Assembly: GCA_022788225.1 (NCBI GenBank)
Contig: JALEVO010000159.1
Span: 54,428 to 118,427, forward strand
Reading direction: 5' to 3'
DNA from: Oscillospiraceae bacterium
GTDB lineage: Bacteria > Bacillota > Clostridia > Oscillospirales > Ruminococcaceae
Length of the DNA stretch: 64,000 nt
Below are positions 44,563 through 51,269 of this stretch, one piece after another (within the stretch, counting starts at the first letter, position 1; each line of letters begins with the position of its first letter). The notes below the pieces were generated by a model that saw nothing but the letters and a program-made list of their open reading frames with translations, searched no databases and had not been told where the DNA came from. The position numbers and the translations under genes were made by a program.

Positions 44563-44799
44563 TTTAAAATCCTCCAAATCAATTTCAAAAATGTTATATT
44601 CAAACATCAAAAAGTTTATTCTTTCTGTGTTTACAATCTTATTATAATATATTTTTTCTGTAATGTCAACCGTTTTCAATAAATATTCACAAGCTTTTCA
44701 CACTTCTGCTGTGAAATATGCAATATCAAGCAGTAATCATTATCAGTTATTTTAAAAAATAAAGAAAGACGTTATTAGCGTCTTTCTTTAACCAAACAC

Positions 44800-45555
44800 T
44801 CATTTAGAAATGATTTCTCCCCATGCGCTGTCCTTATTAGAAGCCATACCGTACCTGCAGATACCGATAGCATCATAAAGATCAACTGCACCGTCTTCAT
44901 TAACGTTTGCAAAGAAATCCTGCTTCTTGTTGAATTTTTCCATAGACATCATTCTCTTTGTTACGAGGATAGCGTCATACAGATCAACCTTACCATCACC
45001 ATTAGCGTCGCCTCTGAGAGCAACTTCTGTAGATGTAGTATTGCCTTCTTCAACATAAACCATGTGGTTAGTAACGGATTTCGCGCTTTCAAGAACTTCG
45101 ATAGTGCTGTTATTGATAACAACATTCTCAAATTCACAAGTATCTGTACAGAAGTTTGTGATAGTCTTGATTCTAACGTCAAATTCTTCGCCTTCTTCAG
45201 CGTCTTCAGGAATCTCGAATGTTAAAGTTGAAAGAACTGTATCATCCTTGAAATATGTTCCTGTAAAGTTAACTAATGAAACAACGTTATCGATCTGGCA
45301 GCTTGAAACAACGCCTTCAATCTTTTTCAGCTCGAGGTCGCTGTCGAAAGCAACGTCAATATTGTAACCTGCGCAGAGGTTACCTGTGTTAACCATAAGG
45401 TCAACTGTAACGTACTTGCCAGCAACTGATGTAGCATCAGTTAATGTGATGGAAGCTGTACCTGACTGTGCGGATAATCTCATTGTGCTGCATGAAACAG
45501 CCATAACTGCTGTTGCGAATAATGCAGACAGTCTTCTTAATGTAGTTTTTTTCAT
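44800..45555 (-). CDS. Secreted single-cohesin + dockerin protein (adaptor-scaffoldin-like)
   Basis: Signal peptide; cohesin-like beta pattern (GKYVTVDL..AGYNIDVAFD..L..LTFEIPEDA); dockerin GDANGDGKVDLYDAI...ANVNEDGAVDLYDAI. Confidence 0.7.
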   Translation of the reverse strand: MKKTTLRRLSALFATAVMAVSCSTMRLSAQSGTASITLTDATSVAGKYVTVDLMVNTGNLCAGYNIDVAFDSDLELKKIEGVVSSCQIDNVVSLVNFTGTYFKDDTVLSTLTFEIPEDAEEGEEFDVRIKTITNFCTDTCEFENVVINNSTIEVLESAKSVTNHMVYVEEGNTTSTEVALRGDANGDGKVDLYDAILVTKRMMSMEKFNKKQDFFANVNEDGAVDLYDAIGICRYGMASNKDSAWGEIISK

Positions 45556-45941
45556 AATTAGCCCTTCTTTCAAAATTTAAGGGCAATCTCATTGTTTGGG
45601 ACGTATGATTTCTGAATCGGACACTTTTATTGTTCAAAACAGACATCATAACCTTTGTGCAACTGGCAATCATACCGTTTCTGATGAAAAAACGGGTTAG
45701 ACCCTTAGCTTTGCGTCCTTACTTTTCAATAAGTTTGCCAAAATTGTGTTTTTAAAACTGGTTTATATTCGTATGGTTTGCTTTAGCAACTTTAAGCATT
45801 AATGCCTTTGCTATGGTTATAGTATACCACCATTTTCCTGCAATGTCAACTGTTTATGGCGTTTTCTCCATTTTGTTATATTTACAGCGGAACGAATTGT
45901 ATACATTGCCTAAATCGTTTAAATATCCTGTAACCTTTTAG

Positions 45942-46433
45942 TTACTTTTGTTTTCTGATTGCAAGAATCGGATACCCTTCTATATATTTTTTTGTTACAC
46001 CAGGATTCTTTTCAGCGTACTCAAACACCGTAGTTTCAAGCTTTTCTTTTACAAATTCCGACAGCTGTGAAAGGGGTCGGCTGTAAATTTCCGGACAAAC
46101 CGGTGAAACAGTTATCATACGAAAACGTTTATCCTCCGTTTCCATGACTCTGAACGGCCAGATACGACAGTCAAAGGGCTTGTCCTCCCCCAGAATACAG
46201 CCTTTTTCATGGTCAAGAGCCGGGCAGTAAAACAGTTCGCCGTCGGAAAGTTCTCCGGCGTAAGTTACATAACCGACACCGCAGGGTTGAAAAATTGTAT
46301 CCGGTCTGAGTTCTTTCAGTTTTCGGGCTGTTTTCCCGTTCATTACCGGCATTTCCCACAAATCAGTATTGTCAAAGCCGCAGCATATTTTACAGGCGGC
46401 ACAGGTTTTATTGTCAAGCAGTCCTTTTAACAT
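45942..46433 (-). CDS. YkgJ-like cysteine-cluster protein
   Basis: CAACKICC, CPAL....GCILGEDKPFDCRIWPF. Confidence 0.8.
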   Translation of the reverse strand: MLKGLLDNKTCAACKICCGFDNTDLWEMPVMNGKTARKLKELRPDTIFQPCGVGYVTYAGELSDGELFYCPALDHEKGCILGEDKPFDCRIWPFRVMETEDKRFRMITVSPVCPEIYSRPLSQLSEFVKEKLETTVFEYAEKNPGVTKKYIEGYPILAIRKQK

Positions 46434-46446
46434 AGTAATCTCCTTA

Positions 46447-48366
46447 TTATTGTTCCGAAACGATTCTGCTCAGTGCGTCAAGATCCTTCTGGTCGTAAAG
46501 ACCGTCACCGTTTATATCGGCAAGGTAAACTCTGTCTGACGGGAATTCCTCCCTGCCCTCGTTGATAAATCTGTTAAGCAGGACAAGGTCAAAAATGTCC
46601 CTCACTCCATCGTCATTTACGTCGCCGGGAAGTTCGTACATATCAGGTTCGCTGACGGTAACGTCAAAACTCTGGCGGAATCCGTTATATGCAATAGTTA
46701 TTGTCTGAACGCCCTCAATCTGCGGATTATAGCCGTCAAAGGAATATGCGGTAATCTGATTTTTGCTGCCGTTGTCAAAATAAGCGTACACTATCATACC
46801 TGTCAGGTCAAGCTGCTGTCCCAGTACATATTCGGTCTTGTCGGGAAGTCTTGTTATGGCAAGTTTTGTCATCTGCTTTTCAGTCACTTCAACAACAAAA
46901 TACGCCTTAAAGTCCTTATATTCCACCTGAATCGTTTTAGTTCCGGCTGTTGAATCCAGTTCCCCCACTGCATAATCGATTATTTCCTCACGGCTGTCGT
47001 TGTCATAGACTGCCTCAACTACCATGCCTGTGGTGTCAAGTTCCTCCCCCTGCTTGTAGACAGTCTTGGTGGGGGGAGTTGTTATCTCGATTTTTTTCAG
47101 CTGTTTCTTTGAAACTGTGACCTTGAATTTCGCCGTCTTCTCCATGTATGTTATCACTACCTCATGCTCTCCGGCAGTAGGTTCATAACCGTCAACGGTG
47201 AAATCTGTTACTGTTTTTTCAGTACCGTCACTGTATTTTGCCACAACTTCAATTCCCTCAAGGGACAGCATATCCCCCTCGTTATACTTTTTCTTTTCAG
47301 GCTCGGACTTAAGATATATTCCGGTCAGCACAGCCGCCTCAAATTCCTGATCGCTGACTCTTTCCGCATAGGTAAGAGCGACCCAGCCGTCCTTGTTATT
47401 GTACCTGGTCTTGCCCCAGATATGCTCGTCCGCTTCTACTGTGTTTGTAACGCTGAATTCAGTTTTGTAGTCAAGAACGTCAAGGGATTTGTAGCCAAGA
47501 CCCGGTCCCTCACGGAGATTTACGCCGTTTTCAGAGGTTATGCGCCATTTTTCCGACTTTCCGGTATTTTCACTGCCGCCCTCATAGTCGATAGGACCGC
47601 CCACCATGTATTTTGAAAAGTCAAGTACGCACCACTGCTCTTTTCCGTCGGCATAGGTCTTGCCCCACAGACTTCCGTCACACATTTTCTTTTCGGTTAC
47701 CTCATATATGGTGTTATACATCAGAAAGCCCGATTTTTCGGCAGAAGTACCGGCGTCCTCTCTCAGATTGATACCGCTTTCCGTGTTGACTCTCCAGATT
47801 TCAGAATCACTGTCTGTTCTGTCCGAAAGAAAAAGCTTTGTTTCCTCCTCACGGCGGTTTACAAGTCCCTGAAGAACACTTCCTCCGGCTTTTCTCCATT
47901 CACCGAAGCCCTTTGCGATTTCAAGAAAGCTATGCTTTTCCGAGCCGTCGATAAGATAATTTTTCAAATCAAAATCATCATAAGCACTCCAGATATTGCC
48001 CATATTGTAGGAAAGTGACACAAGGGCGTCAAACTGGTTCTGCTTCAGTTCAATGTCATACTTATCGGCAAACTTGTTGACATATCCCTCGTATGTACCG
48101 AGTGCGTCTTTCAGCAGCTGTTCGGCTTCCTCCTCCGTAATACCGTCGGGGTATTCGTCAGCGCCGACGCCTGTTCCGTAGCCTATAGTCCACTGGCTGT
48201 AATCCCAGTATTTATACTGGCTGAACCCCTCAGCCTCTTTGATAAGGTCAATGCAGTCCTGACCAGCTTTCATGGCGTTGCCCGCCTTAACACAGAAAAG
48301 AGGCATCAGCATTGCCGCTGAAAGCAGCAAGGACATTGCTCTGATACAAATTTTTCTTGCTTTCAT
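46447..48366 (-). CDS. Secreted GH24 muramidase-SH3b-SH3b-Ig-like x3-dockerin
   Basis: LIKEAEGF..Y.D...WTIGYG, QNQFDALVSLSYNMG, LQGLVNRR; two INLRE..G SH3 repeats; three P.K..Y..G..LD..G Ig repeats; dockerin GDVNDDGVRDIFDL. Confidence 0.88.
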   Translation of the reverse strand: MKARKICIRAMSLLLSAAMLMPLFCVKAGNAMKAGQDCIDLIKEAEGFSQYKYWDYSQWTIGYGTGVGADEYPDGITEEEAEQLLKDALGTYEGYVNKFADKYDIELKQNQFDALVSLSYNMGNIWSAYDDFDLKNYLIDGSEKHSFLEIAKGFGEWRKAGGSVLQGLVNRREEETKLFLSDRTDSDSEIWRVNTESGINLREDAGTSAEKSGFLMYNTIYEVTEKKMCDGSLWGKTYADGKEQWCVLDFSKYMVGGPIDYEGGSENTGKSEKWRITSENGVNLREGPGLGYKSLDVLDYKTEFSVTNTVEADEHIWGKTRYNNKDGWVALTYAERVSDQEFEAAVLTGIYLKSEPEKKKYNEGDMLSLEGIEVVAKYSDGTEKTVTDFTVDGYEPTAGEHEVVITYMEKTAKFKVTVSKKQLKKIEITTPPTKTVYKQGEELDTTGMVVEAVYDNDSREEIIDYAVGELDSTAGTKTIQVEYKDFKAYFVVEVTEKQMTKLAITRLPDKTEYVLGQQLDLTGMIVYAYFDNGSKNQITAYSFDGYNPQIEGVQTITIAYNGFRQSFDVTVSEPDMYELPGDVNDDGVRDIFDLVLLNRFINEGREEFPSDRVYLADINGDGLYDQKDLDALSRIVSEQ

Positions 48367-49056
48367 TTATAGCTCCTTTATAATCATGCAGACATAGTTC
48401 ATGATAAGTCCGCTGTCATCTGTGTTAACAATCTTGTCCCCCGAAACCTCCGCATTTGCCTGACGGGTATAGGAAAAATTATATTTCTCAGGATTAAGCA
48501 GGTACATATTCAGCGAAACAACGTCCGAAACGCTGACATCACCGTCGTCGTTGACATCTCCCCTGTTTATTTCCCCGGCAATTTTCAGAGTGCCGTCTTC
48601 CATTTCAAATTCCGCCTCGCTAAGGTCGTCAGCGATTATCGAATATCCTATAGTCACCGGAGTATCCGTTTCCGCAGTACCGTAAGCCGGTCTGAATTTC
48701 AGGACAGCGGCTGTTCCGTCAGCGATCTGGTTTCTGCTGTCAGACCATACAAGTCTTACTGCATTGTCCGAGTAATCACCGTTGCAGTAAAATGTCCCGC
48801 CGTCAAGTGCGTCACCCTGTTCGGCGTCCATAAAATACAGGACACGGGGGTCGTAATTCACCTCAATGGAATAAGCGGATATTCCTGTGTTGTTTCTGAT
48901 ATTCAGTTCAATTTCTGTTGTTTCACACTCTGCGCCGTAGCCGGCATTTATATATATAGCCGGAGCGTCCTGTGCGGAGACATTTATCGGTGATACCGAG
49001 CCAAGCATTACCGCTGCGGCGGCAAGTACGGCAGTTTTACGTTTCAATCTCATCAT
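48367..49056 (-). CDS. Secreted single-cohesin + dockerin protein (adaptor-scaffoldin-like)
   Basis: Signal peptide; cohesin-like (IRNNTGISAYSIEVNYDPRVL...VRLVW...AVLKF); dockerin GDVNDDGDVSVSDVV; stop abuts next ATG. Confidence 0.78.
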   Translation of the reverse strand: MMRLKRKTAVLAAAAVMLGSVSPINVSAQDAPAIYINAGYGAECETTEIELNIRNNTGISAYSIEVNYDPRVLYFMDAEQGDALDGGTFYCNGDYSDNAVRLVWSDSRNQIADGTAAVLKFRPAYGTAETDTPVTIGYSIIADDLSEAEFEMEDGTLKIAGEINRGDVNDDGDVSVSDVVSLNMYLLNPEKYNFSYTRQANAEVSGDKIVNTDDSGLIMNYVCMIIKEL

Positions 49057-49268: not shown

Positions 49269-49297
49269 ATTTTATCATAAAACTGCCCATTTGTAAA
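49269..49297 (-). promoter_or_regulatory. sigma-A promoter of the cohesin-muramidase operon
   Basis: TTTACA-N17-TAAAAT with TGn on the minus strand. Confidence 0.5.
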
Positions 49298-49409: not shown

Positions 49410-49440
49410 AAAAAACTGCTGTACCATCCGGTACAGCAGT
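49410..49440 (-). terminator. Intrinsic terminator of typA
   Basis: ACTGCTGTACC/GGTACAGCAGT + U-tract on minus strand. Confidence 0.8.
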
Positions 49441-49445
49441 CCATA

Positions 49446-51269
49446 TCACTGTTTTGCTCTGTTCTTCGCTCTCTGTGTATTACTTAATATCCTCTTTCTG
49501 ATACGGATATTCTCCGGCGTTACCTCCAGCAATTCATCATCTGCAAGAAATTCAAGGCTGTCCTCAAGGCTCAGACGTCTTGGGGGAACAAGTCGCAGTG
49601 CATCGTCAGAACCGCTTGCACGGGTATTTGTCAGATGCTTTTTCTTACATACGTTTACAACTAAATCCTCTGTCTTAGGTGACGCACCGACTATCATGCC
49701 CTCATAAACCGGAGTGCCTGCGCCGATAAACAGCTGTCCTCTCTCCTGCGCATTATAAAGACCGTAGGTTACAGCCTCGCCTGTTTCAAAGGACACAAGA
49801 GAACCTGTGTTTCTTCTCGGAATTTCGCCCTTATATGGCTGGTAGCTGTCGAACACGCTGGACATGATTCCCTCACCCTTTGTATCAGTCAGGAACTCAC
49901 TCTTATAGCCGAAAAGTCCTCTTGCCGGAATGAGAAATTCAAGCTTCATTCTTGAACCCTGCGGGTGCATTTCAACAAGGTCTGCCTTTCGTGTACCCAT
50001 TTTCTCCATAACAGAACCGACACATTCCTCCGGCACGTCGATAACAAGTCTTTCAACAGGTTCAAGCTTTTTGCCGTTTTCGTCCTCCTTGAAAAGTACT
50101 CTCGGAGTGGAAACTGAAAGCTCATAGCCCTCTCTTCTCATATTCTCGATAAGGATTGAAAGGTGCATTTCACCTCTTCCGGCAACTCTGAAAGCGTCGG
50201 TGTTGTCAGTTTCCTCAACACGCAGTGAAACGTCCTTTAAGGTTTCCTTGAAAAGTCTTTCTCTCAGCTGACGTGAAGTAACAAACTTACCCTCTTTTCC
50301 GGCAAACGGTGAATCATTTACGGAGAAGGTCATTTCAACAGTCGGTTCGCTGATTTTTGTGAACTCTATAGGTTCAACGCAGTTGGGGTCGCAGACAGTA
50401 TCGCCGATTGTGATACCCTCAATACCGCTTACCCACACAATATCTCCTACCTGTGCAGTTTCCGCCGGAACTCTCTGAAGTCCCTCAATCTGGAGAAGTG
50501 AAACAAGCTTTGCGTTATTGATTTTCTTGTCCGGATTCTGGTGATTGCACACCGCAACATTCTGATTAACCTTGACAGAACCTCTCTGAATTCGTCCGAT
50601 ACCGATTCTGCCCACATACTCGTTATAGTCAATAGAGGAAACAAGCATCTGGAAAGGACCGTTTTCGTCACCCTTAGGCGGTTCTATATAGTTTATAATA
50701 GTGTCAAAGAGAGGGATAAGGTCTGTGCCGGCTTCGTACTGGCTGAGTGAGGCAGTACCCGCCCTGCCTGAACAGAAGAGTATCGGGCTTTCAAGCTGTT
50801 CATCATTGGCATCAAGGTCAAGGAGAAGTTCAAGAACCTCGTCGCCTATTTCGTCAAGACGTGCGTCCGGACGGTCAATTTTATTTACCACAATGATAAT
50901 CTTGTGATTCATTTCAAGTGCCTTTGAAAGCACGAATCTTGTCTGCGGCATTGCGCCCTCTGCGGCGTCAACAAGGAGCAGTACGCCGTCAACCATGCTG
51001 AGAACTCGCTCAACCTCGCCGCCGAAGTCAGCGTGTCCCGGAGTGTCGATGATGTTGATTTTTGTTCCCTTGTAGCATACTGAGGTATTCTTCGCAAGGA
51101 TAGTGATACCTCTTTCACGCTCAATATCGTTGTTGTCCATAACTCTTTCAGCAACGACCTGATTTTCTCTGAATGCACCGCCCTGTTTGAGCATTTCGTC
51201 AACCAGTGTTGTTTTACCGTGGTCAACGTGGGCGATAATCGCAATGTTTCTTAAATCTTCTCTTACCAT
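49446..51269 (-). CDS. typA: Translational GTPase TypA/BipA
   Basis: [54 protein letters not shown]. Confidence 0.97.

Follow-up and report, generated by a model that had tools for sequence, protein, structure and literature searches.

Why should a lysozyme-type muramidase end in a dockerin, and why should its gene directly follow one that encodes a cohesin and a dockerin? The question is raised by a stretch of 64,000 nucleotides (nt) from an Oscillospiraceae bacterium (GenBank assembly GCA_022788225.1, contig JALEVO010000159.1, positions 54,428 to 118,427 of the forward strand), hereafter called the window. Two adjoining genes on its minus strand encode a small cohesin-dockerin protein (adaptor A) and a multimodular GH24 muramidase, which an earlier note, made from the sequence alone, had described as coupled in one operon. 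The answer that we consider likely is that adaptor A serves a single client and joins the muramidase to a fibre-degrading cellulosome, most likely for use against other bacteria. The features of the pair are given below, with positions in the window and residues in amino acids (aa).

48367-49056, minus strand: adaptor A gene, 229 aa (open reading frame (ORF) call and Pfam)
aa 1-28 of adaptor A, minus strand: Sec-type signal peptide (sequence)
48577-48969, minus strand: cohesin of adaptor A, aa ~30-160 (Pfam, PDB sequence match, AlphaFold2 (AF2) and Foldseek)
48370-48567, minus strand: dockerin of adaptor A, aa 164-229 (Pfam Dockerin_1, 25.1 bits)
46447-48366, minus strand: muramidase gene, 639 aa (ORF call and Pfam)
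48373-48378, minus strand: Shine-Dalgarno sequence AAGGAG of the muramidase gene, within the end of the adaptor A gene and 6 nt before the ATG
aa 1-30 of the muramidase, minus strand: Sec-type signal peptide (sequence)
47842-48240, minus strand: GH24/Phage_lysozyme domain (PF00959), aa 43-175 (Pfam, 88 bits, cut-off 22.3)
47602-47799 and 47347-47553, minus strand: two SH3b modules (SH3_3; Pfam)
46642-47334, minus strand: three Big_3 modules (Pfam)
46450-46635, minus strand: dockerin of the muramidase, aa 578-639 (Pfam Dockerin_1, 31.7 bits)

The two genes meet without a gap, the TAA of adaptor A (48369-48367) directly abutting the ATG of the muramidase (48366-48364). The adaptor A gene ends in ...AAGGAGCTATAA and is followed at once by this ATG; the sequence across the junction reads ...AAGGAGCTATAAATGAAA. 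Our reading of the ORFs and of their stop/ATG junction agrees with that of the earlier note. The host, a Porcipelethomonas not yet cultured, possesses a true cellulosome, and close homologues are labelled Porcipelethomonas sp. This Oscillospiraceae genus, formerly UBA1394 in GTDB, was described from strain Sanger_90 and has Ruminococcus flavefaciens as its nearest 16S relative.

Comparative genomics strongly agrees with the proposed coupling of the two genes. An orthologue of adaptor A immediately precedes the GH24 gene in 18 of the 22 species of the genus, the 18 being all of those scored as having either gene, at identities of 26-82% for the adaptors and 46-94% for the GH24 proteins; five of the 18 pair-bearing species were found again in a scan of genome contigs, and six further metagenome contigs have the same adjacency. 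The junctions of these orthologues abut, overlap by 4 (ATGA) or 8 nt, or leave a gap of at most about 30 nt. Closer relatives keep a block comprising adaptor A, the GH24 gene, a gene for a CxxC protein, a second cohesin-dockerin gene (adaptor B, treated below) and rubrerythrin, the upstream flank of which varies between typA, alpha-amylase, Asp-Al_Ex and gyrA. In the distant loci L213-L215 both flanks are entirely different and the pair alone persists, and synteny, which had been suggested as a check on the coupling, is thus retained despite the turnover of the flanks.

The species in which the adjacency is missing are also informative, apart from G304, which at 64% completeness says nothing about the pair's absence. 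Both genes are absent from G319 (99% complete) and G314 (89% complete). In G301 (100% complete) adaptor A is absent, and the GH24 protein has 455 aa, ends after the first Big_3 module and carries no dockerin; its neighbourhood (L226/L229, G301:C64:64173-68591) has a helix-turn-helix gene upstream and retains the CxxC gene, the riboswitch described below and adaptor B. This 455-aa form is the type of cluster P0067, which has 363 members. When the 65-aa muramidase dockerin was searched across the genus, each genome that has it gave exactly one strong match, always the GH24 protein (44-133 bits), and the next dockerin scored at most 36 bits. Likewise, no paralogue of the adaptor A cohesin was found in its own genome at E ≤ 1e-5. 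Outside the genus, in a 300-genome sample of the family and in scans of the collection, no GH24 gene with an adjoining cohesin gene was found among the matches listed, which held only shorter genes of the form GH24, two SH3b, sometimes Big_3, and dockerin, in two other genera and in metagenome-assembled genomes (MAGs) of Ruminococcus. At two loci of Ruminococcus-like genomes (L004 and L005, in G127 and G249), the shorter GH24-SH3b-dockerin gene stands beside a gene whose 286-aa product is anchored in the membrane and shows a GH25-like motif at its C-terminus (...WQYTDEG...D.NL...), which would make this a two-muramidase locus lacking a cohesin gene.

The domains of adaptor A were compared with known cohesins and dockerins. 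The upstream module matches the Pfam family Cohesin (PF00963) with an E-value of 2.8e-9 and 37.7 bits (cut-off 24.1), and a PDB sequence search returned the ScaB cohesins of Acetivibrio cellulolyticus (E 4.8e-6). As both ORFs are in the same frame, adaptor A and the muramidase were translated as one read-through fusion of 869 aa, with the TAA read as a residue, and given to AF2 with a block-clean alignment of 39 rows in which the adaptor homologues were represented by cohesin-only fragments. The individual domains of the fusion were folded (overall predicted local distance difference test score (pLDDT) 78, predicted template modelling score (pTM) 0.38), and residues 30-160 of adaptor A formed a nine-strand sandwich with a pLDDT of about 90. 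Foldseek against the PDB placed type I cohesins at the top (CipC of C. cellulolyticus, 1g1k; template modelling score (TMt) 0.82, root mean square deviation 2.0 Å), with ScaC from R. flavefaciens also among the matches (5lxv, TMt 0.63). The PDB sequence match and the type I cohesin fold remove the doubt, voiced in the earlier note, that the upstream domain might be something other than a cohesin. The ScaC-like architecture suggested there is likewise borne out by the domain calls: a signal peptide, one cohesin and a C-terminal dockerin (...SVSDVVSLNMYLLN...DDSGLIMNYVCMIIK) of the main-enzyme class, as judged by sequence class alone. Among 20 adaptors, conservation was 0.59 in strands 3, 5, 6 and 8 and 0.51 in the other strands (one-sided p=0.02), a slight excess on the canonical dockerin-binding face that lends weak backing to a binding role.

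The muramidase is the sole GH24 of its genome, and Pfam recovers the order of modules read earlier from its translation, the Ig-like modules being Big_3. Its GH24 profile score is above the curated cut-off and the catalytic Glu/Asp/Thr set is present as E46-x8-D55-x4-T60; in an alignment of 21 homologues E46 and D55 were invariant and T60 was found in at least 90%, and therefore nothing suggests an inactive enzyme. The C-terminus has the two calcium-binding repeats of a dockerin (PF00404), DVNDDGVRDIFD... and DINGDGLYDQKD..., within the sequence ...RDIFDLVLLNRF...DQKDLDALSRIVSEQ-end; in the AF2 fusion model a helix comes after each repeat (821-833 and 856-868). The two repeats are not symmetric, and a single mode of binding is therefore suggested.

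The 2.27-Mb assembly (159 contigs) contains 89 Dockerin_1 matches and 7 Pfam cohesins, and 87 dockerins were extracted from it and clustered into classes. The muramidase dockerin was a singleton, with a nearest-neighbour score of 0.31, the second lowest of the 87. The adaptor A dockerin fell into a class of 15 members, the carriers of which include GH48, GH9, GH5 and GH26+CBM35 enzymes by Pfam and, by sequence reading, more GH9/GH5 as well as BNR-repeat, pectate-lyase-like and leucine-rich-repeat proteins. Since the adaptor A dockerin is thus of the core-cellulase class, the muramidase is probably fed into the fibre-degrading cellulosome and not into a separate complex. In this respect the result departs from the earlier note, which had proposed a dedicated complex for peptidoglycan and not for plant fibre; what looks private is the inner cohesin-dockerin pair alone. 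A reading in which the complex degrades starch (an amylosome) was also considered, and was rejected in view of the GH48, GH9, GH5 and GH26 cargo of the class.

On another contig of the same genome, one gene (C64:3-2750) encodes a scaffoldin in which cohesins are repeated and the dockerin is of LYDAI type. The gene directly after it (C64:2835-3527) encodes 231 aa with a single cohesin, a Pro/Thr linker and a sortase signal (SPKTG, a hydrophobic stretch and KKKH); by its sequence this protein is a ScaE-like wall anchor. Together they form an arrangement in Porcipelethomonas that resembles a sca cluster of the ScaB/ScaE type. The genome also encodes a second wall-hydrolase-like dockerin protein (contig C5:1199-2539, minus strand; 446 aa), which has a signal peptide, a cysteine-peptidase-like N-terminal domain, two SH3_3 modules, a Thr-rich linker and an isolated dockerin (nearest-neighbour score 0.34); inspection of its neighbourhood revealed no adjoining cohesin gene.

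Taken as a mechanism, the two-gene, perhaps three-gene, operon would yield two Sec-secreted proteins; the private dockerin of the muramidase would bind the equally private cohesin of adaptor A, and the dockerin of adaptor A would enter an enzyme-binding cohesin of the scaffoldin system, while the sortase-anchored cohesin would keep the cellulosome at the cell surface. Three Big_3 modules would form a long flexible arm that places the muramidase in the midst of the cellulases, with two SH3b modules gripping the peptidoglycan surface at the catalytic end. Its likely use would be the lysis of other bacteria crowding the same plant particle, for competition and nutrient release, and remodelling of the producer's own wall would be the second possibility. 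We infer that the muramidase dockerin binds the adaptor A cohesin, and similarly the binding of the adaptor A dockerin, the activity of the muramidase and the wall that it targets.

Several observations weigh against this proposal. A mirror-tree comparison over 23 pairs gave correlations between domain distance matrices of 0.75 for the cohesin against the GH24 dockerin and 0.85 for the cohesin against the catalytic domain, with no signal beyond phylogeny, and mean pairwise identity is 38% for the adaptor A cohesin compared to 57% for the muramidase dockerin. A small conserved interface could accommodate the faster evolution of the cohesin, although naive co-evolution would predict otherwise. 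Furthermore, no immunity or wall-modification gene was seen near the pair, which leaves a weapon without a mechanism of self-protection, and the assembly is fragmented into 159 contigs.

The alternative that survives best, possible though on balance unlikely, is that the tethered pair works on the wall of the producer itself: as an autolysin or spacemaker it would open peptidoglycan when cells separate, sporulate or germinate, or to let the bulky cellulosome through and allow its turnover. This reading stays alive because the catalytic domain is highly conserved, being the most conserved part of the protein with a mean pairwise identity of 74%, as expected for a housekeeping enzyme, and because no immunity gene lies near the pair. 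SH3b modules commonly bind peptidoglycan of the producer's own type, and the shorter GH24-SH3b-dockerin gene of the Ruminococcus relatives adjoins one for a membrane-anchored GH25-like protein. However, two species of the genus, one of them 99% complete, lack the gene, and the muramidase is thus dispensable. The dockerin of adaptor A belongs to the cellulase class and would place the enzyme in the distal, enzyme-bearing part of the complex rather than at a wall-proximal anchor, and the cellulosomal lysozyme of Ruminococcus champanellensis is reportedly non-autolytic. The cellulase-class output dockerin, the dispensability in two species and the precedent of the lysozyme activity reported for the R. 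champanellensis cellulosome make other bacteria the likelier target.

It is considerably less probable that the two genes are neighbours without a partnership, the muramidase dockerin binding another cohesin (for example that of adaptor B or of the wall anchor) and adaptor A taking other cargo. Adaptor B, also a cohesin-dockerin protein, is encoded close by, and divergence is faster in the adaptor A cohesin than in the GH24 dockerin; moreover, tested group-4 dockerins of R. flavefaciens bind the wall-anchored ScaE directly (PMC5301203), and the single GH24 of that species is classed in dockerin group 4a (PMC2930009). In contrast, the pair adjoins in all 18 of the species scored as having either gene and outlasts the complete turnover of both flanks, and in G301 the loss of adaptor A coincides with that of the dockerin while adaptor B stays. 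In addition, adaptor B is not in the neighbourhood of L213-L215, and the genus search found no second GH24-type dockerin for adaptor A to serve. It is hardly credible that the muramidase is left over from a prophage endolysin and plays no part in the biology of the cell: lysozymes of the GH24 family are of phage type, the PHROGs matches are best to endolysins and NCBIfam gives partial matches to a gene transfer agent endolysin, but the PHROGs matches are confined to the lysozyme domain, the protein is the only GH24 of the genome, it has a Sec signal peptide and is fused to the cellular modules Big_3 and dockerin, it is kept across the genus at 46-94% identity with its catalytic residues intact, and its neighbours are typA, the CxxC protein and rubrerythrin, with no holin or other phage gene nearby, as had already been remarked. 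The endolysin reading was rejected given the restriction of the PHROGs matches to one domain and the single GH24.

The surroundings of the pair bear on the extent of the operon in which adaptor A and the muramidase would be expressed, and include the following features.

49269-49297, minus strand: promoter-like site TTTACA-17-TAAAAT with extended TG (promoter scan, 10/12 consensus matches)
49410-49440, minus strand: intrinsic-terminator-like hairpin and T-run, ACTGCTGTACCGGATGGTACAGCAG + TTTTTT, which ends typA (sequence reading)
45942-46433, minus strand: gene for a 163-aa cytoplasmic CxxCxxCC protein (weak PF03692 match, motif CAACKICC)

The pair is flanked by housekeeping genes (typA and rubrerythrin), and the hairpin and T-run at 49440-49410 set the adaptor operon apart from the upstream typA (49446-51269). 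The site at 49297-49269, which the earlier note had listed as the predicted promoter of the operon, was found by the scan as well; as such sites are just 1.6x commoner here than in shuffled sequence, it is a match to the consensus and not evidence of a promoter. An Rfam scan of the ~210-nt leader of adaptor A detected no element, and the fold of this leader (z = -1.96) is not compelling. At the other end, the CxxCxxCC gene begins 13 nt past the muramidase stop, and a terminator scan found no terminator-like site between the two genes, for which reasons the operon may have three genes with the CxxCxxCC gene as a putative third cistron. This gene is located 3' of the muramidase only in closer relatives (L050, L051, L209, L211, L212 and G301), and the position after the muramidase is not occupied by it in L213-L215.

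Further downstream lies the second cohesin-dockerin gene, adaptor B, preceded by a riboswitch for cyclic di-GMP (c-di-GMP).

45821-45849, minus strand: promoter-like site TTGACA-17-TATACT, near consensus (promoter scan)
45655-45749, minus strand: c-di-GMP-I riboswitch aptamer RF01051 (Rfam, 68.1 bits, gathering score 35, E 2.6e-12)
44800-45573, minus strand: adaptor B gene, encoding a signal peptide, a cohesin and a symmetric LYDAI dockerin (Pfam for the dockerin only, AF2 and Foldseek)
44760-44790, minus strand: terminator-like site after adaptor B (terminator scan)

In this genome Pfam gave no cohesin match for the N-terminal domain of adaptor B, but AF2 modelled it with a pLDDT of 79 and all top Foldseek matches were cohesins (TMt up to 0.77). 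The second cohesin of the earlier note is thus upheld as a fold, and its place has to be amended, since adaptor B forms a separate, riboswitch-headed unit that does not accompany the pair at every locus. The aptamer is positioned in the leader, between the near-consensus promoter and the adaptor B gene; it was found upstream of adaptor B in all seven related loci (7/7), and downstream of it a hairpin (GCCCUU...AAGGGC) can cover the Shine-Dalgarno sequence. The LYDAI dockerin belongs to a class of 22 members, the largest of the genome, and the C64 multi-cohesin scaffoldin carries a dockerin of the same kind, as judged from its LYDAI-type sequence. A search of the papers accessible returned a single, unrelated review and none linking c-di-GMP riboswitches with cohesin or dockerin genes. 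It is a speculative and rather doubtful extension of the above that adaptor A, as a connector for one client, arms the cellulosome with a bacteriolytic enzyme to kill and feed on competitors present on the same plant particle, and that adaptor B would show its composition being rewired by second-messenger signalling.

Cellulosomes are usually seen as machines for plant fibre, and here a wall-cutting enzyme appears to have its own plug, socket and connector into a cellulase scaffold. As the set is conserved across the genus and lost together, bacteriolysis is suggested to be a selected, modular function of gut cellulosomes. For designer scaffolds, the locus supplies an orthogonal cohesin-dockerin pair of natural origin, and its two small proteins, together with the natural dockerin-less variant of G301, provide a defined system in which self and competitor targets of cellulosome lysozymes can be compared. 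The adaptor B riboswitch, if its proposed role is true, would tie c-di-GMP to cohesin-dockerin architecture, and adaptor B under its control would allow the effect of signalling on the make-up of the complex to be approached directly.

Lysozyme modules are known from ruminococcal cellulosomes, where ScaK of R. champanellensis combines GH25 with a cohesin (Morais et al. 2016, Environ Microbiol 18:5112; cited in PMC9210761, PMC6780208 and PMC13463774). The likeness to the present pair is that of a peptidoglycan hydrolase held within a ruminococcal fibre-degrading cellulosome by cohesin-dockerin contacts, in the same bacterial family. In contrast, ScaK unites GH25 and cohesin in a single polypeptide that has no dockerin (PMC9210761), whereas here a GH24 enzyme bears the dockerin together with SH3b and Big_3 modules, and the cohesin comes from a separate adaptor gene. 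The pair, which does not have the single-chain composition of ScaK, would by analogy work like ScaK without being a member of its kind. R. flavefaciens FD-1, another cellulosome producer, encodes a GH24 protein with a C-terminal dockerin of group 4a (Rincon et al. 2010, PMC2930009, Table 2), and Ruminococcus MAGs hold shorter homologues (GH24, two SH3b, Big_3 and dockerin) of 40-43% identity without an adjoining adaptor gene. However, the FD-1 dockerin belongs to a large class of which the tested members bind ScaE (PMC5301203), whereas the dockerin described here is single-copy and encoded together with its own cohesin.

In architecture adaptor A resembles R. flavefaciens ScaC, the dockerin of which enters enzyme-binding cohesins while its cohesin takes another class of dockerin (PMC5301203). 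Both have a signal peptide, one type-I-like cohesin and a dockerin of the core-enzyme class (Rincon et al. 2004; 5lxv), but the ScaC gene is part of the sca cluster and its product takes dozens of enzymes (dockerin groups 3 and 6), whereas the gene of adaptor A accompanies that of one client, apparently the only one served, and the adaptor A cohesin is structurally nearer to clostridial type I cohesins (TMt 0.82) than to ScaC (TMt 0.63). In Clostridium perfringens, too, cohesin-dockerin pairs link enzymes with targets other than plant fibre, and its GH84C cohesin structures (2jh2 and 2w1n) were among the Foldseek matches; there, however, free secreted glycosidases are joined to each other, with no scaffoldin hierarchy, wall hydrolase or operon pairing of this sort. 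Cellulosome-borne lysozymes (ScaK and the FD-1 GH24 protein) and monovalent adaptors (ScaC) are thus already known. What is new is their combination, in which a single-client adaptor is encoded together with, and translationally coupled to, a GH24-SH3b-Big_3 muramidase bearing a single-copy dockerin, would feed into a true cellulosome, is kept throughout a genus and disappears along with the dockerin that it would serve.

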